44,983 nucleotides of DNA, taken from positions 1 to 44,983 of the forward strand of contig JBFICQ010000001.1 of the NCBI GenBank assembly GCA_041581895.1, in the 5' to 3' direction. This document shows positions 17,462 to 35,382 of the stretch, one piece after another. The position numbers were made by a program, and so were the translations under genes. Origin of the DNA: Polyangiales bacterium. Its GTDB lineage: Bacteria; Myxococcota_A; Polyangia; Polyangiales; Houyiibacteriaceae. Each line of letters opens with the position of its first letter. The first letter of the stretch is position 1. A model generated the notes under the pieces. It made no database searches and was not told the DNA's origin. It was given only the letters and a program-made list of their open reading frames with translations.

Positions 17462-17465
17462 TCAC

Positions 17466-20181: not shown

Positions 20182-20873
20182 TGTCTCGCCCTAGTCGACC
20201 GATGCGAACGCACACCCATCAGGAGTTCGAGGCGGAGCTCCGGAATCTAAAGGATCGGCTCTTGGCGATGGGCGGCCGATGCGAGCAGATGATCGGCACT
20301 GCGGTTCGTGCGTTCGAGGATCGCGACGAGGCCCTTGCCAACGAAGTCATGGAGGCTGACCGCGAAATGAATGAGGACGAGCGCGCCGTCGACGACCTCG
20401 CGGTTCGCATCCTCGCCTTACGCCAGCCGGTGGGTCGAGATCTTCGGTTCGCCGTAGCTGCGGTGAAGGCATCGACCGACTTGGAGCGAATTGGCGACGA
20501 GGCCGTCAACATCGCAGAACGCGCCATCGAGATGACGCCCGCGGATCGACTGAGCCCCCCTGGCGCGAAGCTGCCCGAGATGGCGAAGCGAGCAGGCGCA
20601 ATGCTACAGGAAGCCTTGAACGCTCTGGTCGAAGAAGACCCCGAGAAGGCTCGTGGCGTTTTTGACCAAGACGATGCGGTTGACGACATCTACAGCGAGG
20701 TTTTGACCATGTGCCTCGATTACATGAAAGACGATCCGGCACGCATCGCCGATGGTATGCGCATCTGCAATTGCGCCAAGTATCTCGAGCGCATTGCCGA
20801 TCACGCGACGAATATCGCCGAGATGGTCGTCTTCCTCGTCGAAGGCGTCGACGTCCGACACGGTCACGCTTGA
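20178..20873 (+). CDS. phoU: phosphate signalling complex protein PhoU
   Basis: Two PhoU repeats with the E/DxxxD motifs [13 protein letters not shown] and [13 protein letters not shown]. Overlaps the pstB stop. Confidence 0.95.
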
Positions 20874-20889
20874 GGCCGCGGTTCGCAGT

Positions 20890-21210
20890 CTAAGGGTACC
20901 CGACAGGCGGGAACACCTCGTTCGGCGGCGGGCAGCGATAGAGCGTCGCGGTCACGATCATCGTCATCCCATCTTCGAGGTCGGGCTGTGGAGGCTCCAG
21001 CATGATGTGTGTCGCACCGCGCTCGGCCGCTTGATCGAAAGCGTCGGCTCGCGCGGCCCTGTCGTTGCCGCCGGCACCCTCGACGACGCCGATCTTCTCA
21101 CAGCGAGGCTCTTTCTGGACGACCTTGATGCTCGAGGTGCTTTCCGTGCTCTTAGGGCTGCAAGCCGTTGAGAGCCAGCAGCAGCCGATGAGAAGGCCCA
21201 CAATCCGCAA
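20890..21210 (-). CDS. small lipoprotein (DUF4156-like)
   Basis: TTG at 21210 gives MRIVGLLIGCCWLSTAC, a lipobox signal. The body, CEKIGVVEGAGGNDRAARADAFDQAAERGATHIML, resembles the DUF4156 lipoprotein pattern. It starts 1 nt after the porin stop. Confidence 0.55.
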   Translation of the reverse strand: MRIVGLLIGCCWLSTACSPKSTESTSSIKVVQKEPRCEKIGVVEGAGGNDRAARADAFDQAAERGATHIMLEPPQPDLEDGMTMIVTATLYRCPPPNEVFPPVGYP

Positions 21211-21211
21211 G

Positions 21212-22663
21212 CTAGAGCGATGCTTGAAGCTGTAGCCGGAATACGGTTTCACCTTGGCCGAACCGCTCTTGCTCGTTCCAGATCTGCGACACATCGGCTT
21301 GGATCTTGAAAGGGTGCCGGGCGAAATAATAGCTCAACGAAAACGTGCCCCCATAGCTGTCGTCTAGGCTGGTCGGCGCTCTCTTCGAGCTCCCCAAGAT
21401 GAACGAGCCTCGTGCTGCGAACTCGAACCGCGTGCGAGGAAGGAGGTAGCCAGCTTGAAGCATCCAACCAAGGCCGTTTCGGGCCGCGGTCGGCTCGATT
21501 GGATTTCCCTCTTCGTCCTCGGTGATGTCGCCAAACTGGCGCTTTCCGGTTCGATAGGCGAATTCGCTGATCGCCGAGAAGCCGCGAACCTTGAAGATCG
21601 CGTCGACGAACAAGAAGTGATAATCGGCGGTGCCGCCGTCGGCGAAGGGCGCGCCGATCATTCCTCGCGCACGATCGGCGTTCTGGAAAAACGAGTACGT
21701 GGTGCCGATGGAAAGCCGGGGCTTGGTTCGAGCGAAATCCACCTCGCTGTAGTCACGGAAAATGCCGAGCGGTAGGTACTCGAAGCGAACCAAGTACACC
21801 ATCGCGAAGTCTTTGAACTGCGGGTTGTTGAGGCCGGTCCCCGACGTGATGCCCAGGACGTAGCGCATCTTGTCCTTGCCGAGAAAATCCCGGGACCGAA
21901 CATCGATGCCGATGTCGCGATCGAGAGTGAACTCCGCGTTGACTCGAGACCGGTCGACCATCTGCAGGTTCCCAGAGGAAATGACCCGCTGCCGATTTGA
22001 CGAGATCTTGTACTGTCCGATTCGAACCTGGACGTCTCTTTTCTTGGTGAAATCGAGATAGTAGTCGAGCACCACGTTGTCTGCGCGAAGGGGGTCGACC
22101 TCGAGCTTGTATTGATTGTGCTTCCCAAAGGCGTGCCCCTGAAAGATGAAGCGAGCGCGGCGGATTCGGAAATTGTTGGTGACCTCGTCTGGCTCGTCTG
22201 CAGCTCTGGGCCCGACCTCGCCACTCAAAATAGTCCAAAGAAGCTGGATCCGAACGCGGATACGAAGCTGAAACTCGTCGTCGGCGCTGTTGATCTCGAC
22301 GCCCTTGCCGGGCCTGAACTTGATGTCACCGCGATCGACCGGGTGGTCCGCCATCATCTCGTCGTCGCCGTCAGGGCGAAGCTGTTCGCCTGGGACTCTC
22401 GACTCGACCTTTGCCTCTTGATCCGTCTCTTGCGACGGGTCGGATCCAGGCGCGGTAGGCCCGGGCGGTGGGACCTCGATGACTTCGGTTCCTCCTGACG
22501 GCTCGCCCTCGGGGGCCTCTTCAACCGCCTTCTCCTGCTCTTCGGGGATATCCGGGGGCTTGTCGGTGGGAGCGGGCGCTTGTTCCTGAGCGAAGACCGG
22601 AGACGCCAATATCAGCGAGAGGACCGCGCACAGAGCGTGGCGATTGAGACGGGCCTGTTTCAT
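21212..22663 (-). CDS. phosphate-selective porin O/P-like outer membrane protein
   Basis: Signal peptide MKQARLNRHALCAVLSLILASPVFAQE, then an acidic Pro-rich linker and a long beta-barrel pattern ending in L. It sits between phoR and the pst operon and has a Pho box directly upstream. The family call is by context and general pattern. Confidence 0.7.
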   Translation of the reverse strand: MKQARLNRHALCAVLSLILASPVFAQEQAPAPTDKPPDIPEEQEKAVEEAPEGEPSGGTEVIEVPPPGPTAPGSDPSQETDQEAKVESRVPGEQLRPDGDDEMMADHPVDRGDIKFRPGKGVEINSADDEFQLRIRVRIQLLWTILSGEVGPRAADEPDEVTNNFRIRRARFIFQGHAFGKHNQYKLEVDPLRADNVVLDYYLDFTKKRDVQVRIGQYKISSNRQRVISSGNLQMVDRSRVNAEFTLDRDIGIDVRSRDFLGKDKMRYVLGITSGTGLNNPQFKDFAMVYLVRFEYLPLGIFRDYSEVDFARTKPRLSIGTTYSFFQNADRARGMIGAPFADGGTADYHFLFVDAIFKVRGFSAISEFAYRTGKRQFGDITEDEEGNPIEPTAARNGLGWMLQAGYLLPRTRFEFAARGSFILGSSKRAPTSLDDSYGGTFSLSYYFARHPFKIQADVSQIWNEQERFGQGETVFRLQLQASL

Positions 22664-22686
22664 TGCCCGCGTGGTACGCGTCAAAT

Positions 22687-22704
22687 GTGTCAGCTCTGTG
22701 ACAC
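22687..22704 (-). promoter_or_regulatory. Pho box upstream of the porin gene
   Basis: The minus strand reads GTGTCAC-AGAG-CTGACAC (7-4-7). It is followed by ATTTGACGCG, TACCAC, GCGGGCA and then the ATG at 22663. Confidence 0.55.
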
Positions 22705-22723
22705 CAGGGTGTCGCTCTTGGGG

Positions 22724-24097
22724 CTATCCGGACCGGCGCAAGCGAAGGGAAAATCGGGTCCAGCCTTCTCGGCTGTCAACCGTGATCGCGCCCCCCAGCT
22801 TCGCGACCAAATGTTTCACGATCGAGAGCCCAAGCCCCGTCCCCCCAAGCTCGCGAGAGCGGCCGGCATCCACCCGGTAGAACCGCTCGAAGATCCGGTG
22901 AAGATGCTTCGCGGGGATCCCGAAACCCGTATTGGCGACTTCGATGAGGGCACCATCTGCTTCGTCGGCGATCGAGATGCGGATCTCCCCACCTCGTGGG
23001 GTGTACTTGATCGCGTTGTCGACGAGATTGACGAGAACCTGCTCGAGAGCCCGCTTCTCGGCAAGGACGTGGGGAGCTTCTTCGAGGCCGGAGCAAACCA
23101 TCCGCAGATCCTTGGCTCGAGCTTGGGCTTCGAGTCCGCGAACCACTTCATCGAGAAGCGCTCCGGGTGCTACCGGGCCGAGCTCGAGTTTCAGTTCCTC
23201 CCCCTCGAGCCGGCTCAAGTCGGCCAAGTCGTCGACGAGAGCCTGTAGGCGTTCGGTGTGTCGCAAGATGATATCGAGGAATTCGCGGGCAGCCTTAGGG
23301 TCTTCGAGCGCGCTCTGCCGAAGCGTTTCGGCAAACCCTCGGATCGCGGTCAGGGGTGTTCGTAGTTCGTGACCGGCATTTGCCACAAAGTCACGGCGTA
23401 CACGGTCCGCCTCTCGCTCTGCCGTCACGTCGCTGAGCACACAGACCACCCCGCGCCGGTTCTTCAAAGGCGCAACGGAAACGCGAAGAGAGCGTCTCGC
23501 CTCGCCGCCGATGCCTTCGAGATCGATTTCGAGCACTGTCGAGACCCCGCGTTGCGCAGCCTCGATCGCTAGGTGGAAGTCGGGGTGCCTGATCGCCTCT
23601 ACGGCGGTTTTCCCCTCGACGCGTCGGCCCACCCAGCTCTCCAAGACCTCGTTGCTCAGGGTGATCTGCCCCGCCGAATCCGTCACGAGAACCGCCTCGG
23701 ACATCGCGTCCAAGATCGTACCGAGGCGGTCTTTTCTCGAGTGTTTCTTCTTCTCGCTCAGCGAAAGCCGCTCCGCCAAACCATCAAGCGAACGGCCGAG
23801 ATGGCCAAACGGCCCCGGGCGCCGCATGCGAGCGCGGACACTAAAATCACCTTTGAGCATCGCGTCCACAACGGCTTGTAATCGCTGAACGTCGCGCATA
23901 TCACGGCGCGATACGAGCCAACCTGCCACTGCTCCGATCACGACGCCTATGGCGATGATCGCCCAGGAGCGGGCGCCCGGGGCCGTCGCCTGCCAATAGG
24001 CATATAGCCCCGCCACGATGAGCGCGACCACGCCGCCGAACACAGTGTAACGTCGAATCACGCCTGGAGGATACGCGCGACGGCGCCGCGCTACCAA
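22724..24097 (-). CDS. phoR: phosphate regulon sensor histidine kinase
   Basis: Two N-terminal TM helices with a minimal loop, HAMP- and PAS-like regions, the H-box HELRTPLTAIRGFAETL and the G2 box GTGLGLSIVKHLV. It lies immediately downstream of phoB. Confidence 0.9.
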   Translation of the reverse strand: MVARRRRAYPPGVIRRYTVFGGVVALIVAGLYAYWQATAPGARSWAIIAIGVVIGAVAGWLVSRRDMRDVQRLQAVVDAMLKGDFSVRARMRRPGPFGHLGRSLDGLAERLSLSEKKKHSRKDRLGTILDAMSEAVLVTDSAGQITLSNEVLESWVGRRVEGKTAVEAIRHPDFHLAIEAAQRGVSTVLEIDLEGIGGEARRSLRVSVAPLKNRRGVVCVLSDVTAEREADRVRRDFVANAGHELRTPLTAIRGFAETLRQSALEDPKAAREFLDIILRHTERLQALVDDLADLSRLEGEELKLELGPVAPGALLDEVVRGLEAQARAKDLRMVCSGLEEAPHVLAEKRALEQVLVNLVDNAIKYTPRGGEIRISIADEADGALIEVANTGFGIPAKHLHRIFERFYRVDAGRSRELGGTGLGLSIVKHLVAKLGGAITVDSREGWTRFSLRLRRSG

Positions 24098-24787
24098 CTA
24101 GGACTTGAGCGCGCGGTAGCCGACACCGCGGACCGTCTCGATCTGCTTGGCGCCGGCCCCGAGCTTTTCCCGCAGTCTTTTCACGTGCGTGTCGACCGTT
24201 CGCGTCTCCACGTTCGGCGCGTACCCCCAAACGCGCTCAAGCAACGCGTCTCTCGACTGGACTCTCCCAGCGCGGGTGGCGAGGTCGAGGAGGAGGCGAA
24301 ACTCAAGCGCTGTGAGCAGGACCTCTTCGCCGAGGACCTCCACTCGATGCGCCGGGACGTCGATTAGCACGGCCCCTAGTGTGATCACTTGTGGGCCCTC
24401 TACGTCGGCATTTGGAATGGTCCGTCGTAGGATCGCCTCCACTCTCAGAACCAGCTCCCTCGGGCTGAAGGGCTTCGTTACGTAGTCGTCTGCGCCCACC
24501 TCGAACCCGACGACGCGATCGACCTCGTCGGTTTTCGCGGTGAGCATGATCACCGGCAGACGAACCGTCTCACGCTGTCGGCGCAGTCGTCGGCAGACCT
24601 CGATGCCCGAAATATCGGGCAGCATGACATCGAGCACTACGAGGTCCGGTCGGCCACGCTGGATCTCGGCAAGCGCGGTGTTGCCATCGAGCGCGACGGT
24701 CACCTCGTGCCCTTCGCCTCGAAGGTTGAAGGCAACGAGATCAGCCAGGTCGGCTTCGTCCTCGACGACTAGGATTCGCGAGCCCAT
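24098..24787 (-). CDS. phoB: OmpR-family phosphate regulon response regulator
   Basis: MGSRILVVEDEADLADLV..DLVVLDVMLPDISG..MLTAK receiver domain. Winged-helix C-terminus LTALEFRLLLDL..TVDTHVKRLREKL..IETVRGVGYR. The track ORF begins 33 codons further upstream. Confidence 0.9.
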   Translation of the reverse strand: MGSRILVVEDEADLADLVAFNLRGEGHEVTVALDGNTALAEIQRGRPDLVVLDVMLPDISGIEVCRRLRRQRETVRLPVIMLTAKTDEVDRVVGFEVGADDYVTKPFSPRELVLRVEAILRRTIPNADVEGPQVITLGAVLIDVPAHRVEVLGEEVLLTALEFRLLLDLATRAGRVQSRDALLERVWGYAPNVETRTVDTHVKRLREKLGAGAKQIETVRGVGYRALKS

Positions 24788-24817
24788 GTTGTTGTCCGAC
24801 GAATCTGGTCGGCTTCT

Positions 24818-24835
24818 GTGACGCCCTTGTGACAG
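24818..24835 (-). promoter_or_regulatory. Pho box upstream of phoB
   Basis: The minus strand reads CTGTCAC-AAGG-GCGTCAC, 30 nt upstream of the phoB ATG. It overlaps the palindrome GACAGACGCTGTC in the region shared with the divergent DUF47-PiT operon. Confidence 0.6.
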
Positions 24836-24972
24836 ACGCTGTCCAACCGGCCAAACCGAGTCTACACGGCGTAAGAGCAACCTCAACGTGGATTATCAAT
24901 GAAATTCAAAGGATTGGGGCCTTCTTACTTAGTGTTTGAGCCTGTCCCAGGGGAGTGAAAGGCTGGGTTGCC

Positions 24973-25647
24973 ATGAGAATACCCCTTGCCAACCTGCTCG
25001 CGCGCAATCCCCTTCCCAAAGTCGGCGAGCTCATGACCGAGGTCATCAAGACGAGCGAACTAATTCCAGAGCTCATAGCCCTCCTCGAAGCGGGCGACCA
25101 GAAGGGAGTCGAGCGGGTCGCCAAAGAGATAAGCACCCTCGAGGGAAAGGCCGATGACGCAAAGAACGCGGCACGATCGAAGATGCCCGTCCGTCTCCTC
25201 ATGCCCGTCGATCGGCGCGACGTATTGAAGCTCATCAGCGAGATCGACGCGATAGCAGACTGTGCGGAGGACGTGGGCGTGCTGCTCACCATCCGTCCTC
25301 TGACCGTGCCCAGCGAAATGAAGACCGTGCTCGACCTCTTCGTCGAACGGGTCCTCGGAACCGTGAAAGAGGCCGCAAAGCTCATCGACTTGATCGACGA
25401 TTTGGTCGAATCAGGGTTTTCGGGGCCTCCTGCAGAGCGGGTGCTCCAGCAGGCCGCGATTCTCGGACGGGCGGAGCACGAAGCGGACAAGATTCAAGAC
25501 CAGTGCGCCAAGGTCCTCTTCAAAGAAGAAGCGGAGCTGCCGCCGGTCGCCGTATTCATGTGGAGCAAGGTGCTGAACAAGATCGGCGACATGGCGAATC
25601 ATGCCGAGAACGTGGGGGATCAGTTCCGGCTTTTCGTTGCCGGATAG
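24973..25647 (+). CDS. DUF47 / TIGR00153 PhoU-like phosphate transport accessory protein
   Basis: MRIPLANLLARNPLPKVGELMTEV.. followed by ...EGKADD..., DRRDVLKLISEIDAIADCAED and KVLNKIGDMANHAENVGD. This is the usual partner immediately upstream of PiT. Confidence 0.85.
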   Translation: MRIPLANLLARNPLPKVGELMTEVIKTSELIPELIALLEAGDQKGVERVAKEISTLEGKADDAKNAARSKMPVRLLMPVDRRDVLKLISEIDAIADCAEDVGVLLTIRPLTVPSEMKTVLDLFVERVLGTVKEAAKLIDLIDDLVESGFSGPPAERVLQQAAILGRAEHEADKIQDQCAKVLFKEEAELPPVAVFMWSKVLNKIGDMANHAENVGDQFRLFVAG

Positions 25648-25660
25648 GGCCGCTTTTCGC

Positions 25661-26911
25661 ATGGAACCCATGACGATCGTTGTTGCCCTCGCGGCAATCG
25701 CCGGCCTCTACATGGCTTGGAATATCGGCGCGAACGATGTGGCCAACGCCATGGGGACGTCGGTGGGTTCCGGTGCGCTCACCCTGAGGGGGGCCATCAT
25801 CGTGGCCGCGGTGTTCGAGTTCAGCGGTGCCATGCTGGTGGGCGGGACGGTCACGAAAACCATTCGCAAGGGCATCGTCGACGTCGCTGCGTTTGGGGGC
25901 GACCCGATGGTGATCGCGGTCGGCATGACCTGCTGTCTTCTCGCGGCCGCTCTTTGGCTGAACATCGCCACCTATTCGGGATGGCCGGTTTCGACGACGC
26001 ATAGCATCGTCGGCGCAGTCGTGGGCTTTGGGCTGATCGCAGGTGGGTTGGACGCCGTGAACTGGACCGTGATGGCGAAGATCGTAGCAAGCTGGGTGGT
26101 TTCCCCGTTGATGGGGGGCTTTCTTGGTTATCTCGGCTTCGTCTTCATCAAGCGCCGAATTCTGAACGTCGACCGACCGCTGCTCGCGCTTCGTGGTTGG
26201 GGCCCGATCATGGTCTTCCCGATCTTTGCGATCTTGGCGTTGAGCGTGCTTTTCAAGGGACTCAAACCGCTGAAGCTCGATCTGAGTCTCGGCCCCGCGC
26301 TGGGCATCGCGGTCGTTGTAGGATTGACGGCGAGCATCATTGCCGCTCCTGTCCTCCGTCGATTCGCCCGGGCGGCTGCCACGAAAAGCAAGGATGAGCG
26401 TACCTATCGCGCCGAGCGGGTATTTCTCGTTCTGCAAGTGCTCACCGCCTGCTTCGTCGCATTTGCACACGGCAGCAACGATGTCGCCAACGCAGTGGGC
26501 CCGATGGCAGCAGTATTCGGTGCGGCCTCGGGGGAAGTCGGCGCAAAGGTCGCTGTCCCCCATCGAGTTCTTCTGATCGGTGCGGTCGGCATCGTGATCG
26601 GGCTAGCGACCTATGGCTACAAGATCATGGCTACCGTGGGACGTCGGATTACTGAGCTCACTCCTTCTCGTGGCTTTGCAGCCGAGTTTGGGGCAGCAAC
26701 GACGATTGTGCTGGCCAGCAAGCTGGGGCTGCCGGTGAGCACCACCCATACGCTCGTTGGAGCCGTGATCGGAGTCGGTTTCGCGCGGGGTATTGGCGCC
26801 ATCAATACGAAAGTCGTTACGGGCATCATCGCGAGCTGGTTCATCACGGTCCCCTTTACGGCGATTCTCGCCGCCGGCCTGTTCCTCGTCGCTCGCTTCA
26901 CCATTCAATGA
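25661..26911 (+). CDS. pit: inorganic phosphate transporter, PiT family
   Basis: The GANDVANAMGTSVGSG and GSNDVANAVGP repeats are the duplicated PiT signature. About 10 TM helices. Confidence 0.9.
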   Translation: MEPMTIVVALAAIAGLYMAWNIGANDVANAMGTSVGSGALTLRGAIIVAAVFEFSGAMLVGGTVTKTIRKGIVDVAAFGGDPMVIAVGMTCCLLAAALWLNIATYSGWPVSTTHSIVGAVVGFGLIAGGLDAVNWTVMAKIVASWVVSPLMGGFLGYLGFVFIKRRILNVDRPLLALRGWGPIMVFPIFAILALSVLFKGLKPLKLDLSLGPALGIAVVVGLTASIIAAPVLRRFARAAATKSKDERTYRAERVFLVLQVLTACFVAFAHGSNDVANAVGPMAAVFGAASGEVGAKVAVPHRVLLIGAVGIVIGLATYGYKIMATVGRRITELTPSRGFAAEFGAATTIVLASKLGLPVSTTHTLVGAVIGVGFARGIGAINTKVVTGIIASWFITVPFTAILAAGLFLVARFTIQ

Positions 26912-26947: not shown

Positions 26948-28051
26948 ATGGCTTTGTCGGTCGGCATCGTCGGCCTTCCCAATGTCGGGAAATCCACCCT
27001 TTTCAACGCGCTTTCGGAGAAAGAAGCCGAGGCGGCGAACTACGCGTTTTGCACGATCGACCCCAATGTCGGGGTGGTCCCGGTCCCAGACCCGCGCTTC
27101 GACCGGTTGGTCGAGCTCTACGCGCCGAAAAAGGTGGTCCCGGCTACGGTCGAGTTCGTGGACATCGCCGGCTTGGTGCGAGGCGCCTCGAAGGGCGAAG
27201 GCAAAGGTAATGCCTTCTTGAGCAACATCCGCGAGGCCGATGCGATCGCCCACGTCGTTCGGTGCTTCGAGGACGAAAACATCGTGCACGTCGACAATCG
27301 CGTCGATCCGGTCGCGGATATCCAAACGATCGAAACCGAGCTGATTTTGAAAGACCTAGAAACGGTGGCGCGGAGGCTCGACAGGGCCGAGCGCGCGGCC
27401 AAAGGCCAGGACCCGTTCGAAAAAAAGGCGGTCGTCTTTTGCAAGAGGGTCGAAGCGCTACTCAACGAAGGAAAGCCCGCGACGGCGGTCGAGCCCTCGG
27501 ACGAAGACGAGACCCAGATCCTCCGCGACATGTTTCTGCTCACCAACAAGCCTTCGTTCTTCGTTGCAAACGTCAAAGATGACCAACTCGCAAATGCCGA
27601 CGACGATCCGCTGGTCGCACAGGTCCGCAAGCTCGGCGAGGAGCGCGGCGCTCCCGTCGTGGTGATCAGCGCCGCGATCGAGGCCGAGATCATGCAACTT
27701 CCCCAAGAGGAGCGCGCCGAATTCGTCGACTCGTTGGGGCTCGACGAGCCAGGTCTTCACAAGGTCATTCGCACCGGATACCGCACGCTCGATCTCATCA
27801 CGTACTTCACGGTTGATGAGCCCGAGGTTCATGCTTGGACCATCGACCGAGGGACCAGGGCGCCCCAAGCAGCTGGCAAGATCCACACCGACTTCGAGCG
27901 CGGATTCATTCGCGCCGAGGTGATGAAGTGCCAGGACCTCTTCGAGCTCGGCTCGGAGCAGGCGGTCAAGGCTGCCGGCAGGCTCGCAATCGAGGGTAAA
28001 GACTACGTCGTGCAAGACGGCGACATCATGCACTTTCGCTTCAACGTTTGA
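26948..28051 (+). CDS. ychF: redox-regulated ATPase YchF
   Basis: GIVGLPNVGKSTLFNAL, FCTIDPNVG, VDIAGLVRGAS and the C-terminal TGS-like block GKDYVVQDGDIMHFRFNV. Confidence 0.95.
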   Translation: MALSVGIVGLPNVGKSTLFNALSEKEAEAANYAFCTIDPNVGVVPVPDPRFDRLVELYAPKKVVPATVEFVDIAGLVRGASKGEGKGNAFLSNIREADAIAHVVRCFEDENIVHVDNRVDPVADIQTIETELILKDLETVARRLDRAERAAKGQDPFEKKAVVFCKRVEALLNEGKPATAVEPSDEDETQILRDMFLLTNKPSFFVANVKDDQLANADDDPLVAQVRKLGEERGAPVVVISAAIEAEIMQLPQEERAEFVDSLGLDEPGLHKVIRTGYRTLDLITYFTVDEPEVHAWTIDRGTRAPQAAGKIHTDFERGFIRAEVMKCQDLFELGSEQAVKAAGRLAIEGKDYVVQDGDIMHFRFNV

Positions 28052-28059
28052 CCATTCGC

Positions 28060-28644
28060 CTATAAGACGTTGACTTCGATTAGCAGGTACTCGTTGTTGC
28101 CGTGGTTGTTTACGTGAAAGAGCATGGGGGTTCCCGCCTCGAAATCATCGGTTGCGGTCCAGGTTCCATTGGTCGGACCGCTAGGCTGTGGAATCAGCAA
28201 GCGCTCGTCGAAGATCATCTGATCGCCGAGGGTGAGACTGATCCGCGCTTCACTATCAAACGGCGCGGTCAGCTGGAAATGAAACGTGCGGATTTCGACC
28301 TCGTCGCCGGCACGAATCGCCCTCAGAGACGGTTGCTCGAGGGTGATCCAGTCGCAAACTTCGGTATACACCGCCAACACCGTGAACGCGTCAAAGCACT
28401 CAGCGACGAACGGCACTCGGCAGGTCGGGGGCAGGTCTACGCACTCGCCGGTCTCCAAGTCCGGACAGTCACCTTGCGGCGGAGCACATGCGGCGCCTTC
28501 CGGAGGAGGACCGAAAATTTCCTCGCCCTTGGTCGTCTGCTGCCAACGTGTGTTGTCGACGAGCGGACCGGGATCGCCCCCAGCGCCAGTTCCACACCCG
28601 ACGACGAGCCAAACGCCCGTAGCGATCATCATCCGCCCAAACAT
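28060..28644 (-). CDS. lipoprotein, unknown function
   Basis: MFGRMMIATGVWLVVGC is a lipobox signal. The N-terminal half is Cys-rich and the C-terminal half looks like a beta-sandwich. Confidence 0.65.
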   Translation of the reverse strand: MFGRMMIATGVWLVVGCGTGAGGDPGPLVDNTRWQQTTKGEEIFGPPPEGAACAPPQGDCPDLETGECVDLPPTCRVPFVAECFDAFTVLAVYTEVCDWITLEQPSLRAIRAGDEVEIRTFHFQLTAPFDSEARISLTLGDQMIFDERLLIPQPSGPTNGTWTATDDFEAGTPMLFHVNNHGNNEYLLIEVNVL

Positions 28645-28681
28645 GTTACTCCCTTCGGGATACTCCTCGACGAGGCAACGG

Positions 28682-29209
28682 TTAGCCCTCGCGAGGAACG
28701 CTGACCCGAACCCGAACGTCGGGCTTGATCTTCAGCGCGCCAAAAGCCGCCGTGTACGGCTTGATGCCGAAGTCGAGTTGATGGATCGTCACCTCGGTCA
28801 CCCATCGCTGCCCCTCGGGTCGAACGTCTGCCTGAATCGTCCGAGACAACCCATGCAGGTGGAGCTGGCCTTCGACCGAATAGCCCTCGCCTTGCTGAAC
28901 GACCTCCACCGACTCGAAGCGAATCTCTGGATGTTTGCGTGTCCGTAAGACGTCCTTCGTGATGTTGTCGTAGATCTTCTTCTTGTCGCCTTCGCTCAGA
29001 GCGGACGGATCGTCCAGTCCGTCGATCTGCGCGCAAACGACCTGAATGCTGCTCGGATCGAACGTCGCTTGGATGCTTTGAGACCCCTCGTCGAGCTCGA
29101 TTGAAAACCGCTCGACCTGCATCTTCAGGTCGTGGGCGAGCCGCGCCAAAAGCCCATCCTTGAACGAGAAGATCAGGCACTCGGAGTTGTAGGCGTCGTA
29201 GCGAGGCAT
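28682..29209 (-). CDS. YceI-like (polyisoprenoid-binding fold) protein without an obvious signal peptide
   Basis: HPEIRFESVEV..YSVEGQLHLHGLSRTIQADV..FGIKPYTAAFGALKIKPDVRVRV matches the YceI family pattern. The N-terminus MPRYDAYNSECLIFSF is not a signal sequence. Confidence 0.75.
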   Translation of the reverse strand: MPRYDAYNSECLIFSFKDGLLARLAHDLKMQVERFSIELDEGSQSIQATFDPSSIQVVCAQIDGLDDPSALSEGDKKKIYDNITKDVLRTRKHPEIRFESVEVVQQGEGYSVEGQLHLHGLSRTIQADVRPEGQRWVTEVTIHQLDFGIKPYTAAFGALKIKPDVRVRVSVPREG

Positions 29210-29271
29210 CGCGGGCCATGTAACTCACTCCGCGGTCCTAGGCCAGTTCGTGTTTACCGTAGCGCAGAGCC

Positions 29272-31077
29272 TCAGGGTTCCTGAATGAAGTAGGATCCGA
29301 GGAGGATGAACATCTCTTCCTCGGTGGTGACGCCTCCGCCGGTCGGGCAGGCATCGCAGATGCCGACGCCGCCGCAAAGCGAGTCGTCGCCGTTGCACGT
29401 CATCCCCTGGTCGGGCCCGCCATAGCAGGAACGCTCCTCGGGCGCGCAACCGCAGCCAAAGACCTCAAATCCACCCTGCGAGGCAAGGCCGCGTATCGTG
29501 GCGACGAAGTCACAGGTCTCGGCATCGGGCTTGGTCGACTCGCGACGGACCTCCTCGGGATTGGTTTCCCCGTTGTCCCAGAGCGAACAATACTTGAAGG
29601 TACGGTCGCGCGGGTCGGCGCTGTCGTAGACCGGTAGGTCTGGCTCGAAGAAGCGCTGGTAGAGCGGATCGGCGTAGTCGCGGCTGATGTAGTCCGGCTC
29701 GCGATCCTCAGGAAGGCAGTCAGGCCCAGGCTCGCACGCTTCGTTGGGCGGATACCACACGCGGAACCGCTTGCCGAAGCGGTGCGTATGAGAGCTCAAG
29801 GTCATCAGCCGGGCGTGCTGCGGGATGGTGTAGCTCGTGCATACTTCCTTCGAGGTAAACGCCTCGACCGTTCCCATGCCAAAGATGTCAGAGGCATCGA
29901 AGATCTGCCGACGCTCGTACAACTGCTCCTCCGGAGTCGCGAACTCGACGTTCATCCACTGCTCGACCGTGGTGTCCGTCTCGGTGAGGTTGAACGCGTG
30001 GCTGTCCCAGACGATGAAGCCCTCGACCGGCATCAAAGCGTAGACGTTGGTGGGATAAACCTCGCGGAACGTGGCTTCCTGGGCTGTCGCGACGTTCTGA
30101 CGAACGTCGGCGTCCCCGAAGAGCCCCGCCACCGTGCCGAGGTCGTTCGGGCCATTCCTGTAGCCGATGCAGGCGACCGAGGTGGTCGGCGCCGTCACAC
30201 ACTGACTGCGATCCCCGCACTCGTCGGACCCTGGCGTGCACGACACTCCATCGTTCTCGCCGCCGAGGCAGATCCATTTCTTCCAGGCGTCGCTCATCGG
30301 ATTCCACACCGCTTCGATCGTCGGCACGTAGAACTCGACGATGCTGTGGTGCGATTGCGGATCCTGCGCTAGGAGGATGTCGTTATAGGCAAAGCAGTCG
30401 CGGTCGGGGCCGCCCTGTGCCTCCCCGCACGGCACCTTGAGCTCGTTCGGAACCTGGTCGGAGTAGTTGTAGTAGCTCACGAAGCAGACCTCGCCCTCGC
30501 CTTCGGCTGGGAGCGTCCAGCCACCAGAGTAGAACTGCACGCCCTTGTCCGCAGCCGGCGGAGGGAGCGGTTGGATCTTGTTGGGAACGACCTCGCCCTC
30601 GAGGGCGCAGGTGGCAAACGCCTCGGAGCCGTCGACGATCCCGATCTCGGGAGCACCGCCGCGGATCCACGCGCGCAGCAATCCGAGGTCATCCTCGCTC
30701 AACGCATCGCCACCGAGCGGCATCGCGCTGCCCCCGATGCCCTGCGCGCCAAGATTGGTGCCTTCGGTTTTCGCTTGGACCTTCAGGTAGAGGAGGCTCA
30801 GGTCCTGCTCGGCCGGAAAGACGAGCTTGAAGTCGCCCGCGACGCCATCGACGTTGATCAGGTTGTCGTAGGCAACGCCGGCACGGAGATCCAAGCCGGA
30901 CTGAGGCGAGTCGCCGTGGCAATTCGACGCGGTGCAACCACGTGCCTCGAAGATCTGCTCTTGGATCTGAGCAAACGTGCTGTCGGCGTCGCATTTGGGG
31001 GCTTGGCTGGCGTCGTTGCCGCAGCCCACTACGGCCAAGGCGCTGATCGCGAGGAACAAGACACGAACGGGTTTCAT
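29272..31077 (-). CDS. lipoprotein, paralog A: CX4CH cytochrome-c-like module plus PHM/DBH-like copper monooxygenase ligand pattern
   Basis: Lipobox LAVVGC (Cys19), GC48TASNC53H54G, MPLGG..LSEDDLGLLRAWIRGGAP, SH243H244SIVEF, WDSH360AFN, SSH430TH432RFGK and TTEEEM589FILLGSYF. Roughly half the positions match paralog B by eye. Confidence 0.8.
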   Translation of the reverse strand: MKPVRVLFLAISALAVVGCGNDASQAPKCDADSTFAQIQEQIFEARGCTASNCHGDSPQSGLDLRAGVAYDNLINVDGVAGDFKLVFPAEQDLSLLYLKVQAKTEGTNLGAQGIGGSAMPLGGDALSEDDLGLLRAWIRGGAPEIGIVDGSEAFATCALEGEVVPNKIQPLPPPAADKGVQFYSGGWTLPAEGEGEVCFVSYYNYSDQVPNELKVPCGEAQGGPDRDCFAYNDILLAQDPQSHHSIVEFYVPTIEAVWNPMSDAWKKWICLGGENDGVSCTPGSDECGDRSQCVTAPTTSVACIGYRNGPNDLGTVAGLFGDADVRQNVATAQEATFREVYPTNVYALMPVEGFIVWDSHAFNLTETDTTVEQWMNVEFATPEEQLYERRQIFDASDIFGMGTVEAFTSKEVCTSYTIPQHARLMTLSSHTHRFGKRFRVWYPPNEACEPGPDCLPEDREPDYISRDYADPLYQRFFEPDLPVYDSADPRDRTFKYCSLWDNGETNPEEVRRESTKPDAETCDFVATIRGLASQGGFEVFGCGCAPEERSCYGGPDQGMTCNGDDSLCGGVGICDACPTGGGVTTEEEMFILLGSYFIQEP

Positions 31078-31213
31078 AGGGGCTCCTAAGCGTTGAACGG
31101 TGAGATCGAGGGCCGGATTGTTTGTGATTGGTTTATCGGTGCACGCAAAGTTGCGGAGTGCTCATAAAGTGGATTGGTTTTCCGGGCGAAAGCCAGCTGC
31201 GTAGCAACGTCCG

Positions 31214-32974
31214 CTACGGCGAAGGGGGCTGAACGAAGTACGACCCGAGCGGGATGAACATCTCGTCGTCGGTGGTGATCCCTCCCCACACGGGGCAGGC
31301 GTCGCAGATGCCTTCGCCTCCACAGACCGAGTCGTCGCCACCGCACAACATGCCCTGGTCGGGCCCCCCAAAGCAGGCCCGGTCCTTCTCGGCACAGCCG
31401 CAGTACGCGACTGGCGCAGCGCAGGTGGGCGTATTGGGCTTGGTGGACTCGCGCTTCACCTCGGAAGGATCGTCGGCGCCATTGTCGTAGCGGGCGCAGG
31501 CCTTGAACGTGCGGTCCGCAATGTCCGCTCCATCGTACTCGAGCGGCGGGTCATAATAGAGGTAGAGCGGGTCGTCGTAGAGCCGGCTTTCGTAGTCGGC
31601 GGGGCCTGGCGGCGGGACGCACCCCTGGGAGCCTGCGCATGGCTGATGGGGTGGAAGCCAAATTCGGAAGAGCTCGCCCTTTTGATGCATGTGCGAGCTG
31701 AGAGACATCAACCGGCTATACTGAGGGAGGTCAAAGGTCATGCAGACCTCGCGCTTCTCAAACGGCGGGATGGTCGACATGGCGAAGATCTCTTGCGCTT
31801 CGAAAAGTTGCTGGCGGAGCCATTGGCGGCCCTGTTCTGGAACGAAGCTCAAGTTGACCCATTGCTCGATGCTCGTGTTTTTCGTGGTGAGATTAAAGCC
31901 ATGACTGTTCCACGCGACGAACCCTTGGAGCGGGAGCCGCGAATAGACCCCCTCTTGCGGCTGGTCGATGAAGGTCGACTCCTGCGCGCCCGAAAGCCCA
32001 ACCCGCGTCCCGGACACACCGCCGATCGCGCCAGCGCCGAAATCCGAAAAGTCGCTTGGTGCGTGAGGATAACCTACGCAGGCGACCGACGTCCGAACGG
32101 GCGTACTGCACGCCGATCGCACGCCGCACGCCCCCAGGTCGGTCGGGTCGCACGGCTGCCCATCGGCAGCGCCACCAAGGCAACTCCAAGGACCCCAGTC
32201 ACCCCCGTTGGGGTCGGACTCGGGGGTGTAGACGGTAATGATGCTGTGATGCGACTGCCCGTCCTGGGCGAGCTCGTTTCGGCCGAAGGCGAAACATTTC
32301 CGACCCTCGCCAAACTCGTCGCAGTCAACCTGATATTCGGGCGGAACCGCATCTCGAAAATCGTAGTAGGTCGCGTAGCAAACCTCGTCCTCGGCCTCTG
32401 CGCCGAGCGCCCAACCCCCGGCGTAGACCTGGACACCTTCACCGGGCGCGGGAGGCGGCAAAGGATTGATCTTGTTCGGGTCGGCGGCGAAGCTTCCTTC
32501 ACACCCGAGAAGGTTGAGCGTGCCTGCAACGATTCCGTCCTCCGGAGCACCCGCGCGCATCCACAACAAGACGGCTTCGATCTTGTCGTCGGAGAGGCGC
32601 GGGAGACCCGACGGCATCGCCTGGCCAAGACCTGCACTGGCGAGCTCTTGGGTGGTCTCGTGAAGCTTGCGGTAGAGAAGGCTGCGCTCTTGGTCGCCCG
32701 GGAAGACACGCTCGATGTCGGAGTTGACGCGGCTGCTCACTCGCACCAGCGATTCGTAGGAAGCGCCCGGACGAAGATCGAGCCCACCGGCCGATTCGAA
32801 GCTCGCGCCGTGACACGCGTTGCTCGTACAGCCTTCGCCTTCAAAGATCGTTGTCTGAATCGCAGCGAAGGTGCTGTCGAAGTTGCAGTCAGCCGCCTCG
32901 TTCGAGCTTTCGCCGCAAGCACTTGCCACCAGTGCTACCGAGCTGGTGAGCACGAACCAGTCTAGTCTACGCAT
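31214..32974 (-). CDS. lipoprotein, paralog B of the same family
   Basis: The Met at 32974 gives MRRLDWFVLTSSVALVASAC, a lipobox signal. GCTSNACHG, MPSGLPRLSDDKIEAVLLWMRAGAP, SHHSIITVY, WNSHGFN, SSHMHQKGE and TTDDEMFIPLGSYF are all colinear with paralog A. The track ORF starts 32 codons further upstream. Confidence 0.8.
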   Translation of the reverse strand: MRRLDWFVLTSSVALVASACGESSNEAADCNFDSTFAAIQTTIFEGEGCTSNACHGASFESAGGLDLRPGASYESLVRVSSRVNSDIERVFPGDQERSLLYRKLHETTQELASAGLGQAMPSGLPRLSDDKIEAVLLWMRAGAPEDGIVAGTLNLLGCEGSFAADPNKINPLPPPAPGEGVQVYAGGWALGAEAEDEVCYATYYDFRDAVPPEYQVDCDEFGEGRKCFAFGRNELAQDGQSHHSIITVYTPESDPNGGDWGPWSCLGGAADGQPCDPTDLGACGVRSACSTPVRTSVACVGYPHAPSDFSDFGAGAIGGVSGTRVGLSGAQESTFIDQPQEGVYSRLPLQGFVAWNSHGFNLTTKNTSIEQWVNLSFVPEQGRQWLRQQLFEAQEIFAMSTIPPFEKREVCMTFDLPQYSRLMSLSSHMHQKGELFRIWLPPHQPCAGSQGCVPPPGPADYESRLYDDPLYLYYDPPLEYDGADIADRTFKACARYDNGADDPSEVKRESTKPNTPTCAAPVAYCGCAEKDRACFGGPDQGMLCGGDDSVCGGEGICDACPVWGGITTDDEMFIPLGSYFVQPPSP

Positions 32975-33027
32975 ACCTGAGCCTCTCGCCGATGGGGGTA
33001 TAGGGCCGAGACGCGGGCTCGTCTCGC

Positions 33028-33048
33028 TAATTGACCCACATTCAATTA
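33028..33048. promoter_or_regulatory. candidate operator: perfect 7-bp inverted repeat in the most AT-rich spot of the window
   Basis: TAATTGA-cccacat-TCAATTA sits inside CTAATTGACCCACATTCAATTAACAATTTATCAG, between divergent paralog B (start 32974) and the DUF4281 gene (start 33126). Confidence 0.35.
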
Positions 33049-33125
33049 ACAATTTATCAGAAGGGCGCAAGTCGCGCGCAAAACCCCCGCCTCAAATCCA
33101 AGGCGATGGGCTAAAAGACCTGCTC

Positions 33126-33584
33126 ATGCCTCTCGAGATCCTCTTCAAGGGCGCGAATTTCGCAGTTCTTCCGTTTTGGCTGCTCCTCCTGGTCGCGCCT
33201 CGATGGCGCGGGACGCAACTATTGGTGCATGGGCCTGCGGTGGTCTTGCTCCTAACACCTATCTACGCCTACATGCTCTTCGGCTACGGACCGTCGCCGC
33301 AAGACATCGACATGACGACGCTTTACGGAGTGATGAGCGCATTTACGGCGCCCCACGTCGTCGTCGCCGGTTGGATTCACTATTTGATCTTCGACCTCTT
33401 CATCGGCGCCTGGGAGGCGCGTGACGCACTGCGTCTCCATATCCCACAACTATTCGTTATCCCGTGTCTGTTGGCGACTCTTGTCGTCGGTCCCGTAGGG
33501 CTGTTGCTCTACGTAATCGTGCGGTTCATCACCCGCGGCGTGATCCAATACGACGAAACCGTTTCCGCAGAGTCACGGTCTTAA
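33126..33584 (+). CDS. DUF4281 (ABA4-like) membrane protein
   Basis: MPLEILFKGANFAVLPFWLLLLVAPRW..., WIHYLIFDLFIGAW and four hydrophobic helices match the ABA4-like family pattern. The track ORF starts upstream in a non-coding-looking stretch. Confidence 0.7.
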   Translation: MPLEILFKGANFAVLPFWLLLLVAPRWRGTQLLVHGPAVVLLLTPIYAYMLFGYGPSPQDIDMTTLYGVMSAFTAPHVVVAGWIHYLIFDLFIGAWEARDALRLHIPQLFVIPCLLATLVVGPVGLLLYVIVRFITRGVIQYDETVSAESRS

Positions 33585-33591
33585 TAAGAAA

Positions 33592-33623
33592 GGGCCAGCG
33601 CTGTCAGGCGCCGGCCCTCTTTT
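33592..33623. terminator. bidirectional rho-independent terminator
   Basis: GGGCCAGCGC-tgtcag-GCGCCGGCCC forms 9 bp plus one A·C mismatch. It is followed by TCTTTTC on the + strand and by TTTCTTATT on the - strand. Confidence 0.7.
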
Positions 33624-33940
33624 CAAATGAACTCCCACCGGTGTGGGGGAGTTAGTTCGGTGGGCTAACTCGTCCGCACCTCCGGTGAGAGTTCGGTTCT
33701 ACTACTTATGTCCATATGCACATTCCTCCCCCGGCGATGCCGGCGCTCTCGGGTCTCTGGGCACCACGCCCAGACCGCGCAGAGCCTTCTTTGGTGGTTA
33801 GACCCACGGATATCGAGGGCCGGTTCACGATGGCGAGTCTCCTGTTGGAGTTCGCACCATTGCGGGGGCTCCGCCCAACCGCCACCGATGGCAAGTCGCA
33901 TTGCGAAAAGGGAGTCCCTTTTTCGGGCAACGCCACTCAC
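33624..33940 (-). ncRNA. candidate unclassified structured RNA, or a long structured 3' UTR
   Basis: No credible ORF in any frame. A minus-strand promoter-like TTGGCG (33975-33970), 17-nt spacer and TATCTT (33952-33947) lie right after the phosphodiesterase stop. Several hairpins are present: GAAAAGGG/CCCTTTTC, GGTCTGGGC/GCCCAGAGACC, GAGTTAG-9 nt-CTAACTC and AACTCCCCCAC/GTGGGAGTT. The tract ends at the bidirectional terminator. Confidence 0.3.
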
Positions 33941-33988: not shown

Positions 33989-34759
33989 TCAGAGCAGGAA
34001 TTCGTCGCCGAGCTGAAGAATCTGCAGGTTCCGACCACGGATCTGAGCAAGCTCGCGCAACACCTCGGCCTCGAACACCGGCTTGATGTGATATAGTAGA
34101 ATCGGTAGCTCGTCTCGGTGCGTCAGCTTGCGGAGCTCGGCCTCGAGCGTTTCCGGTGTGTGATGTCGAGACCGGTGCGCCAGCTCTGCTTCCCCGTTCG
34201 GGAACGACACTTCCATCATGAGAGCTTGCAGATCGTCGAGCGCATTCACGTGGGTCCAAAGCTCTTCGGTGGGCCCGGTGTCTCCGCTGTAGACGATACT
34301 GGTAGCGTTTTGATGGATGATGAACGCGGACGTGTCGACCGTGTGATTGACCATGACGGGCGTCACATCGAAGCCCCTTACTTGGGTTGGTCGACCAGGC
34401 TCGATCTCGACGAAACGCACCGCCGGCCCGTACTCGGACTCAATGCGTGTGAAGTCGGGCCAAATGATGTCGTTGAAGAAATGCTGTTTGAGAGCGCGAA
34501 CGGTCGCCGGAACGCCAACGATCTCGAGCGTGGCGCTACCCTTTTGACAACGATTGTCAGCTAGTGTCGCGAGATCGCGAATGTGGTCCATGTGGGGATG
34601 ACTGATCAAAATCGATTCGATGCGCTCTTGCTCGTCGAGCGACAATGACGCGGTCACAGCACCGGCGTCGACCGCAAGCGTGTCGCCAACCAGGAAGCTC
34701 GAAGTACGGTGTTTGGGCGTCTCTCCACCATGACAACCGAGACTGCGCAGTTGCATCAT
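33989..34759 (-). CDS. class-II 3',5'-cyclic-nucleotide phosphodiesterase (metallo-beta-lactamase fold)
   Basis: ILISHPHMDHIRDLATLA matches the class-II PDE HxHxDH signature. YSGDTGPT and VNHTVD provide further metal-site elements. Confidence 0.8.
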   Translation of the reverse strand: MMQLRSLGCHGGETPKHRTSSFLVGDTLAVDAGAVTASLSLDEQERIESILISHPHMDHIRDLATLADNRCQKGSATLEIVGVPATVRALKQHFFNDIIWPDFTRIESEYGPAVRFVEIEPGRPTQVRGFDVTPVMVNHTVDTSAFIIHQNATSIVYSGDTGPTEELWTHVNALDDLQALMMEVSFPNGEAELAHRSRHHTPETLEAELRKLTHRDELPILLYHIKPVFEAEVLRELAQIRGRNLQILQLGDEFLL

Positions 34760-35382
34760 CCGCCCCCGGAGTTGCGAAGGAACTCTAGAAATTCAGCGAG
34801 GCGTTCGTGGTCCCTGACGAGCACGAACCCGCCCGAAACTTCGATCACTCCGACGCGGGTGAGTCGGCGCAGAGCGCGCCGGACTTCATCTCGCTTGATC
34901 CCTAGCTTGAGGGCGAGCTCCGAGTCGGTGATGTCGGGAGCCGACGAGCCATTGGCGGGTTGAAGCATGTCTTGGACCTCGAGAATGACACGCGCGGTGA
35001 CGTCGTCCTCGAGGAGGATGTCGATGAAACGGTTTGCCTTCTCGAGTCGCTCGGCAAGATGTCGAATCAGTCGAATCGCCACTTCACCGGCATCGAGGAT
35101 CATCTCCTGGAGCTTCTCGGTCGGTACTTTGAGGAGCTCTGCCTCTTCGAGCACCTCGACGGTAGCCGACCGCGCACCCCCGGTCACGACCGCCATCTCT
35201 CCGAAGAAATCGCCCGGGCCGAGGGTCGTGACCACGCGTTGGCGCCCGTTTGATTCCTTGACGACGCGGACTTTACCCGCGCGAATGACGTACATCGACT
35301 GGCCGGGGTCCCCCTGGCGAAAAACCGTCGTACCCTCCGAAAGACGAACGCCAAATCTCTCAGCCAAAGACTGATCCACCAT
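34756..35382 (-). CDS. Crp/Fnr-family regulator with a cyclic-nucleotide-binding domain
   Basis: FRQGDPGQSMYVIRAGKVRVV..LGPGDFFGEMAVVTGGARSATV is the cNMP-binding motif. C-terminal winged HTH LALKLGIKRDEVRRALRRLTRVGVIEV. Its stop overlaps the PDE ATG as ATGA. Confidence 0.85.
   Translation of the reverse strand: MVDQSLAERFGVRLSEGTTVFRQGDPGQSMYVIRAGKVRVVKESNGRQRVVTTLGPGDFFGEMAVVTGGARSATVEVLEEAELLKVPTEKLQEMILDAGEVAIRLIRHLAERLEKANRFIDILLEDDVTARVILEVQDMLQPANGSSAPDITDSELALKLGIKRDEVRRALRRLTRVGVIEVSGGFVLVRDHERLAEFLEFLRNSGGG

Follow-up and report, generated by a model that had tools for sequence, protein, structure and literature searches.

Two tandem lipoprotein genes on a Polyangiales contig

The DNA analysed here (the window) comprises the first 44,983 nucleotides of contig JBFICQ010000001.1 from a Polyangiales bacterium (assembly GCA_041581895.1), and our subject is a pair of adjacent genes on its minus strand, which we call paralog A (29272..31077, 601 residues) and paralog B (31214..32974, 586 residues when read from its ATG). 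The two proteins appear to share one architecture, namely a signal peptide with a lipobox, an N-terminal domain resembling those that carry heme c, and a two-domain core resembling that of the animal copper enzymes peptidylglycine alpha-hydroxylating monooxygenase (PHM) and dopamine beta-hydroxylase (DBH); for A this assignment rests on the open reading frame (ORF), an AlphaFold model and Foldseek, and for B on the ORF and the identity to A. All coordinates given below for parts of A and B refer to the minus strand. The gene calls on the source contig have the same lengths, 601 residues (A) and 586 residues (B), and identical sequences. A longer ORF for B, with a TTG start and reaching 33070, is also present; the ATG start is favoured because the homologs measure 586–593 residues, and B orthologs of equal length populate more than 100 clusters. 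BLASTP aligns A and B over their full length at 46% identity, in agreement with a preliminary description of this DNA, made from the sequence alone, which had reported tandem minus-strand lipoprotein paralogs matching at about half of their positions; the motifs that it quoted are all present in both proteins, with the residue numbering used here. Long ORFs also run antisense over both genes (31646-32965, plus strand, 439 residues, over B; 29782-30372, plus strand, 196 residues, over A). These are high-GC artefacts, which cluster across loci only through the conservation of the sense strand.

Judged from their N-termini, A and B are predicted to be envelope-anchored lipoproteins with a signal peptide. 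By direct reading, the lipobox pattern [LVI][ASTVI][GAS]C is satisfied in A by MKPVRVLFLAISALAVVG-C19 (ending in AVVGC19) and in B by MRRLDWFVLTSSVALVASA-C20 (ending in VASAC20). The signal peptide of A occupies residues 1–19 (31021..31077) and closes with the lipobox VVGC19, whose cysteine is invariant in 124 homologs. Each protein contains 22 further cysteines, most of them within two family-specific insertions, where they probably form disulfides that stabilise the exported enzyme.

The core of A resembles PHM and DBH in fold

From an alignment of 124 sequences, AlphaFold2 produced a model of A that has a mean predicted local distance difference test score (pLDDT) of 90.5 and a predicted template modelling score (pTM) of 0.86 and consists of a helical N-terminal module (residues ~27–150) followed by two beta-rich domains. 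When the model was compared with the PDB by Foldseek, ranks 1 to 27 were taken up by human DBH (4zel, E = 1.8e-8) and then 25 rat PHM chains, all with a probability of 1.00, E values between 1.8e-8 and 1.2e-4 and a TM-score of about 0.5 per PHM length. After rank 27 come PNGase F-type proteins from the superfamily of PHM and DBH (probability ≤ 0.66), and then viral double jelly-rolls. Neither a PNGase F-like nor a viral capsid jelly-roll assignment of A was retained, the corresponding matches having probabilities of at most 0.66 and TM-scores of at most 0.2.

The first of the two beta-sandwich domains, of CuH type, spans residues 165–395 of A (29893..30585), as delimited by the strands of the model and by a Foldseek superposition that extends over both PHM domains. 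It carries a Cys-rich insertion at ~251–330, in which the cysteines at positions 270, 280, 287, 293 and 303 are conserved. The second, of CuM type, spans residues 396–601 (29275..29892) with a Cys-rich insertion at ~445–580; here the assignment draws on the model, on Foldseek and on a match of the Pfam family Cu2_monoox_C to the equivalent region of a homolog, P0341. A two-domain PHM/DBH-like beta-sandwich fold is thereby well supported by the model of A, and the fold that the preliminary description had proposed is the one to which the structure prediction and the fold search lead.

A proposed PHM-type set of copper ligands

The proposed copper ligands are H243/H244, H360, H430/H432 and M589 in A, and H242/H243, H358, H428/H430 and M572 in B. 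In A, the pair H243-H244 (30346..30351), located at the start of a model strand formed by residues 242–250, and H360 (29998..30000), 70 residues before H430, are the candidate ligands of CuH and compare with H107/H108 and H172 of PHM, whereas H430-T-H432 (29782..29790) and M589 (29311..29313) are those of CuM and compare with H242/H244 and M314. The counterparts in B were located by alignment to A and by motif: H242-H243 (32246..32251) and H358 (31901..31903) are proposed as CuH-type ligands, and H428-M-H430 (31685..31693) and M572 (31259..31261) as CuM-type ligands.

Conservation singles out the same residues. Across 67 sequences that are 33–48% identical to A, 14 alignment columns are invariant (H243, H244, H360, H430, H432, E588, M589, six cysteines and one proline), and the sole histidines and methionine among them are the six proposed copper ligands. 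Counts were also made over 149 representatives with at most 50% mutual identity, aligned to the family hidden Markov model (HMM), the denominators being the sequences that cover each site: H243 and H244 are each conserved in 113 of 116, H360 in 113 of 115, H430 in 109 of 111, H432 in 107 of 111 and M589 in 92 of 93, which amounts to 96–99% overall. A holds seven histidines in all. Six are candidates for binding heme or copper; the one left over, H421, provides an internal control, being unconserved and replaced by glycine in most homologs.

The spacing of the ligands was compared with PHM, whose sequence and numbering were checked against PDB entry 1sdw. The interval from H360 to H430 is 70 residues, identical to that from H172 to H242 in PHM, whereas the intervals from H244 to H360 (116 residues versus 64) and from H432 to M589 (157 versus 70) are wider because of the insertions with conserved cysteines. 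Local profile–profile alignment with hhalign places HTHRFGK of A on the H242-T-H244-HLGK segment of PHM (HTHHLGK; E = 0.019; family pattern HTHxxGK) and GVTTEEEMF, which contains the invariant E588 and M589, on GGTSSDEM314C (E = 0.04; family pattern GxTTxDEM). The two matches, both at the CuM site, are collinear and are the only local profile–profile matches to PHM. Among the 67 members, Cu2_monoox_C (PF03712) is matched by three, the best being P0341 (19.5 bits, below the cutoff of 23), and in P0341, the one such member inspected, the match covers the HxH motif; PF01082 is matched by none of the 67. An HMM of animal PHM only, searched against 391 family sequences, gave E values of ~0.5–0.9, the profile being too narrow, and global hhalign runs, with the whole core and by domain, returned meaningless end-gap alignments and no residue-level alignment of the CuH domain to PHM. 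We infer the equivalence of H243/H244/H360 to H107/H108/H172 of PHM from fold, order, spacing and invariance.

Overall, the presence of a PHM-type copper ligand set in A and B is well supported at the level of sequence comparison. The preliminary description had claimed a full PHM/DBH set conserved in both paralogs, a match of A to the H-T-H-x(2)-G end of PROSITE signature 2, a methionine context resembling that of the PHM CuM-Met, and spacings longer than in PHM that are filled by Cys-rich insertions. These claims hold, with the interval from H360 to H430 as the one spacing that equals its PHM counterpart; paralog B, which carries HMHQKG, does not match the end of signature 2.

The N-terminal module is a candidate c-type heme domain

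Residues 27–150 of A (30628..30999) form a module that is helical in both of the models made (that of the full protein and a separate one of the N-terminal domain, with a pLDDT of 87.7) and that we regard as a putative mono-heme cytochrome c domain of PSCyt1 type, since a few family members give weak matches of this kind. Two elements stand out by their conservation. The first, C48-T-A-S-N-C53-H54 (30916..30936), is a CX4CH motif that would provide covalent heme attachment and the proximal histidine; the second, M119-P120 (30718..30723), lies in a conserved G-x-P/A-M-P block and contains the putative distal methionine ligand. Alignment to A and the motifs themselves place the equivalents in B at C49-x4-C54-H55 (32810..32830) and M120-P121 (32612..32617). 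Both elements belong to a block found throughout the family, T-[FWY]-x-A-I-Q-x-x-I-F...G-C-x4-C-H-G...G-G-L-D-L ... G-x-P-M-P ... L-x-x-W-I-x-x-G-A. The two cysteines and the histidine of the motif are present in 106–107 of the 107 representatives that cover it, and Met119-Pro120 in 114 of 116.

In approximately nine of the first 100 representatives (e.g., P0245, P0312, P0314 and P0328) the motif is CXXCH, which MAFFT aligns at the CX4CH site with a two-residue gap, and such an interchange is expected of a heme c attachment site. Variants of CXXCH, among them CX3CH and CX4CH, are known as heme c attachment motifs. Profile matches within the 67 members point in the same direction: PSCyt1 is found in three (P0242 reaches 22.1 bits, the cutoff being 22), Cytochrom_C in two and CTI, the heme-bearing N-terminus of fatty-acid cis/trans isomerase, in eight. 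Among PDB sequences the family profile finds a single counterpart, the heme domain at the C-terminus of hydrazine synthase alpha (E = 0.5), whose CXXCH pairs with CX4CH; this chain also leads the Foldseek list for the separate domain model, at a non-significant E of 1.1. Each of these lines is weak or sub-threshold when taken singly; together, they make it quite likely that the module is a c-type heme domain, as the preliminary description had suggested when it noted a PSCyt1-like module with CX4CH. Heme binding by A and B is likely on the same sequence grounds, with Met119 as the presumptive distal ligand.

A and B belong to a large bacterial family

The named homologs of A and B all carry the label "hypothetical protein", and the closest of them come from metagenome-assembled genomes (MAGs) of Myxococcales and Polyangiales. 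Searched with the family profile, 1.84 billion cluster representatives yielded 5173 proteins at E ≤ 1e-3, of which 966 reach E ≤ 1e-10 and 179 reach E ≤ 1e-30. When a single genome was scanned for each GTDB species, 358 family loci emerged, chiefly in Myxococcota/Polyangiales, Candidatus Binatia and Halieaceae; among the Halieaceae carriers are 'Candidatus Seongchinamella marina' IMCC8485, which is in culture, and Halioglobus. A and B belong to a large bacterial family that lacks a Pfam or NCBIfam model and any database annotation, and of which we found no study; the literature searched described neither a bacterial member nor a cytochrome c fused to PHM, which is not proof of absence.

Many of the proteins matched are longer than A and B, with Cys-rich DUF4215 repeats at the N-terminus, PEP-CTERM-like tails at the C-terminus, or extra beta-propeller or TIG modules. 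Distant members such as P0242, P0244, P0255, P0298, P0280, P0263 and others add DUF4215 repeats, PEP-CTERM-like tails, PQQ-type beta-propellers or TIG domains, and to judge from their sequences these additions suggest display at the cell surface in other lineages.

Genomic context of the pair

B, A, a YceI-like gene and a gene for a lipoprotein of 194 residues follow one another in the same orientation, separated by 136, 62 and 37 bp, and the latter two may be part of the same operon as A. The YceI-like gene (28682..29209, minus strand) encodes 175 residues, is recognised by the Pfam YceI family (E = 2.7e-14) and is found at the same position in relatives; its product has no signal peptide although it is encoded between exported lipoproteins. 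YceI proteins are lipid or polyisoprenoid binders, and this neighbour may hint at the substrate class. The 194-residue lipoprotein (28060..28644, minus strand) has the lipobox VVGC and the C-terminus LFHVNNHGNNEYLLIEV, and keeps its position in the relatives represented by loci L001-L003. It has no relative in Pfam, NCBIfam or the PDB and does not resemble the A/B family. On the other side of the pair, across ~150 bp, a gene for an ABA4-like/DUF4281 membrane protein (~33126-33584, plus strand; Pfam E = 1.2e-33) diverges from B, again at a position kept in relatives.

The block is syntenic together with its surroundings (genes for cardiolipin synthase, a Crp-like regulator, a metallo-beta-lactamase-fold phosphodiesterase, YchF and PHO4) in relatives whose A orthologs are ~64% identical, and this synteny reflects shared ancestry and not a functional link. 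Orthologs of A and of B occur on shared contigs in at least 25 cases and are adjacent in L001-L003; the duplication is old and both copies have stayed next to each other in many Polyangiales genomes. The long maintenance of the pair suggests that A and B are non-redundant: each may have a substrate or a reaction step of its own, or the two may assemble into a hetero-oligomer. A third paralog, ~50% identical to A, is encoded far from the pair in related Polyangiales genomes (L004/L010 on CAWBXS010000002.1; L005/L006 in one MAG), and several Binatia and Myxococcales MAGs have two or more copies or tandem copies.

Clustering of the neighbourhoods of 82 loci revealed no partner conserved beyond the clade of the window; many of the seemingly conserved clusters consisted of ORFs antisense to the family gene. 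In distant taxa, genes for ECH (enoyl-CoA hydratase), ACAD (acyl-CoA dehydrogenase), SDR, luciferase-like oxidoreductase and amidohydrolase_2 proteins often adjoin the family genes; this is suggestive of hydrophobic-substrate catabolism, although such gene families are very abundant in these phyla in any case. Scans of 27900-33800 for promoters, terminators and Rfam elements gave nothing useful.

Further features lie outside the block. At 33989-35382 (minus strand), a gene for a cNMP-binding Crp-like regulator stands directly upstream of one for a metallo-beta-lactamase-fold class II cyclic-nucleotide phosphodiesterase, and in related genomes the phosphodiesterase also matches Anti-Pycsar_Apyc1 (Pfam) weakly. 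A phosphate-acquisition block at 17385-26911 (Pst permease and ATPase, PhoU, a porin O/P-like protein, a two-component pair of PhoR/PhoB type and a PHO4 transporter) adjoins ychF and the lipoprotein cluster. Between the small lipoprotein gene and ychF, L001 (11131-12258) and L003 (11140-12288) contain an extra gene of 375–382 codons, without a Pfam match, that the window does not have.

A proposed heme-fed copper monooxygenase and its alternatives

We think it somewhat probable that A and B each combine a mono-heme c-type domain with a two-domain, non-coupled binuclear copper monooxygenase of PHM/DBH type, anchored in the envelope. In such an enzyme (numbering of A), the heme would be bound covalently through CX4CH and ligated axially by His54 and Met119, while H243, H244 and H360 would form the CuH site and H430, H432 and M589 the CuM site. 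A periplasmic electron carrier would reduce the heme, which would then pass single electrons to CuH, in the role that ascorbate plays in the animal enzymes. CuH would in turn reduce CuM, where O2 would be activated and a C–H bond of a substrate bound in the interdomain cleft hydroxylated. The copper binding, the electron path and the oxygenase chemistry of A and B are what we infer here, and with them A and B would be self-contained, ascorbate-independent monooxygenases, as the preliminary description had envisaged.

Several results weigh against this proposal. Trivial noise of the signal-peptide type aside, A and B match no Pfam or NCBIfam family at E ≤ 1, and this includes PF01082, PF03712 and PF07635, the profiles that the preliminary description had named for the copper core and the PSCyt1-like module; both proteins remain below every Pfam threshold. 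Neither phmmer with A alone nor the family profiles recovered PHM or DBH from the PDB sequences, and the sequence-level links to PHM described above are all sub-threshold, none of them lying over the CuH domain. The PROSITE pattern H-H-M-x(2)-F-x-C is not matched by the HHSIVEFY of A, and of the second pattern, H-x-F-x(4)-H-T-H-x(2)-G, A (...RLMTLSSHTHRFG) matches the H-T-H-x(2)-G end only, with no H-x-F upstream. For the N-terminal module, the top Foldseek match of the isolated domain is the hydrazine synthase alpha heme domain with a non-significant E value of 1.1, and pLDDT is low (56–77) around the CX4CH motif in the models. Finally, the neighbourhood survey found no conserved partner, copper chaperone or cytochrome from which a substrate or an electron donor could be deduced.

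Other readings were also weighed. One keeps the heme c and both coppers and gives up C–H hydroxylation, so that A and B would be oxidases or electron-transfer enzymes whose substrate is inorganic or a small redox compound (for instance metal ions, or species of nitrogen or sulfur), or else peroxygenases or oxidases that do no more than reduce O2. The occurrence of the nearest relative of the heme domain in hydrazine synthase would suit such a role, as would the lack of an organic-substrate pathway consistently linked to the family and the fact that the substrate-binding residues of PHM cannot be aligned. Yet the methionine ligand and the glutamate before it are strictly kept, and distant members are often found beside the ECH, ACAD, SDR, luciferase-like and amidohydrolase genes mentioned above, which belong to organic catabolism (and are, again, very abundant gene families in these phyla). 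To our knowledge, moreover, all characterised enzymes with this fold and the H3/H2M ligands (PHM, DBH and tyramine beta-monooxygenase) are C–H hydroxylases, and we consider a function other than hydroxylation unlikely.

It is decidedly unlikely, in our estimate, that A and B are PHM-fold copper proteins without heme, in which CX4CH would serve as a disulfide or another metal site, the module would act in docking or structure and electrons would be supplied from outside by a small molecule or a protein, as in PHM. Such a protein would explain why A and B themselves have no significant cytochrome match, why Foldseek finds nothing significant for the isolated domain and why model confidence drops around the motif, and CX4CH is indeed uncommon as a heme motif. 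However, CX4CH alternates at one position with CXXCH, both being heme c motifs, and the histidine after the second cysteine (106 of 107) and the Met-Pro pair (114 of 116) are retained almost throughout. The module, furthermore, resembles only PSCyt1, Cytochrom_C, CTI and the hydrazine synthase heme domain, and low pLDDT is expected where a heme pocket is modelled without its heme. That A and B are non-catalytic envelope proteins with a double jelly-roll of the PHM/PNGase F superfamily, serving in binding or structure and with structural His and Met residues, is highly improbable: the PNGase F-like and viral double jelly-roll capsid proteins of the Foldseek list that would speak for it appear at ranks 28 and below with probabilities of at most 0.66 and TM-scores of at most 0.2, against 1.00 and ~0.5 for PHM/DBH, and the six proposed copper ligands are the only His or Met residues among the 14 invariant columns, which otherwise hold six cysteines, one proline and the glutamate before M589.

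The heme-fed monooxygenase can also be cast more broadly, as a widespread class of cytochrome c-fed PHM-type enzymes that would draw electrons from the respiratory chain and hydroxylate a lipid, isoprenoid or hydrocarbon outside the cytoplasm, with the A/B pair as a two-enzyme or hetero-oligomeric system. The hint of a lipid substrate derives from the YceI-like and ABA4-like neighbours in this clade and from beta-oxidation-type neighbours in Binatia, Myxococcota and Halieaceae; in this extended form the proposal is speculative and, on balance, doubtful.

Comparison with known systems

A and B share with PHM, DBH and tyramine beta-monooxygenase (PF01082 plus PF03712) the two beta-sandwich domains and the order of the ligands, HH...H followed by HxH...M; with PHM specifically, they share the 70-residue spacing from the single histidine to HxH and the local motifs HTHxxGK and (T/S)xDEM. 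Like PHM and DBH, they are predicted to be extracytoplasmic and rich in disulfides. They differ from these enzymes in having only ~10% sequence identity to them, below the Pfam thresholds, in their two large Cys-rich insertions, and in being bacterial and lipid-anchored. The heme c-like domain stands at the N-terminus where DBH has a DOMON domain, whereas PHM has no extra domain at all, and its fusion to the copper core makes ascorbate an unlikely reductant for A and B.

The N-terminal module itself is comparable to PSCyt1 (PF07635), CTI (PF06934) and the C-terminal domain of hydrazine synthase alpha (5c2v_A), with which it has in common a helical unit of ~120 residues and the pattern F..I...IF....C..CH(G)....GGL.L ... 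PMP ... L..WI..GA. In contrast to these domains, most members of the family, A and B included, carry CX4CH instead of CXXCH, and their scores fall at or below the thresholds. The known modules are fused to PSD1/PSCyt2, CTI or hydrazine synthase modules, whereas in A and B the partner is a putative copper enzyme.

Heme domains that serve exported copper enzymes have precedents. In fungi, the cytochrome domain of cellobiose dehydrogenase feeds lytic polysaccharide monooxygenase (LPMO), and copper nitrite reductases fused to cytochrome c exist. In bacteria, the c-type cytochrome domain X183 reduces LPMOs (PMC8981238). The arrangement that we propose for A and B would be alike in that a heme domain gives single electrons to a mononuclear copper of an exported oxidoreductase, with no need for a small-molecule reductant; it would be unlike these cases in its copper domains, which are unrelated (a histidine brace in LPMO, cupredoxin T1/T2 sites in the nitrite reductases), the acceptor in A and B being a PHM-type CuH. 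A heme domain feeding a CuH site of this type is not described in the literature that we searched. The superfamily fold of PHM/DBH and its metal sites are known; new here are a sequence that lies below the PHM/DBH family thresholds, the insertions, the domain fusion and the cellular setting.

PHM and DBH are textbook enzymes that make amidated peptide hormones and noradrenaline in animals, and their mechanism is debated with respect to how electrons cross the solvent cleft of ~11 Å from CuH to CuM. They are animal glycoproteins, hard to produce and dependent on ascorbate. If the proposal is correct, a bacterial counterpart with its own heme would serve as a recombinant model in which electron delivery can be followed optically, and PHM-type copper chemistry would prove widespread in bacteria, to the extent of the 5173 cluster representatives at E ≤ 1e-3 and the 358 loci reported above. 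The metabolism of Polyangiales, Binatia and Halieaceae, abundant groups that are largely represented by uncultured members, would gain a new kind of extracytoplasmic oxygenase.

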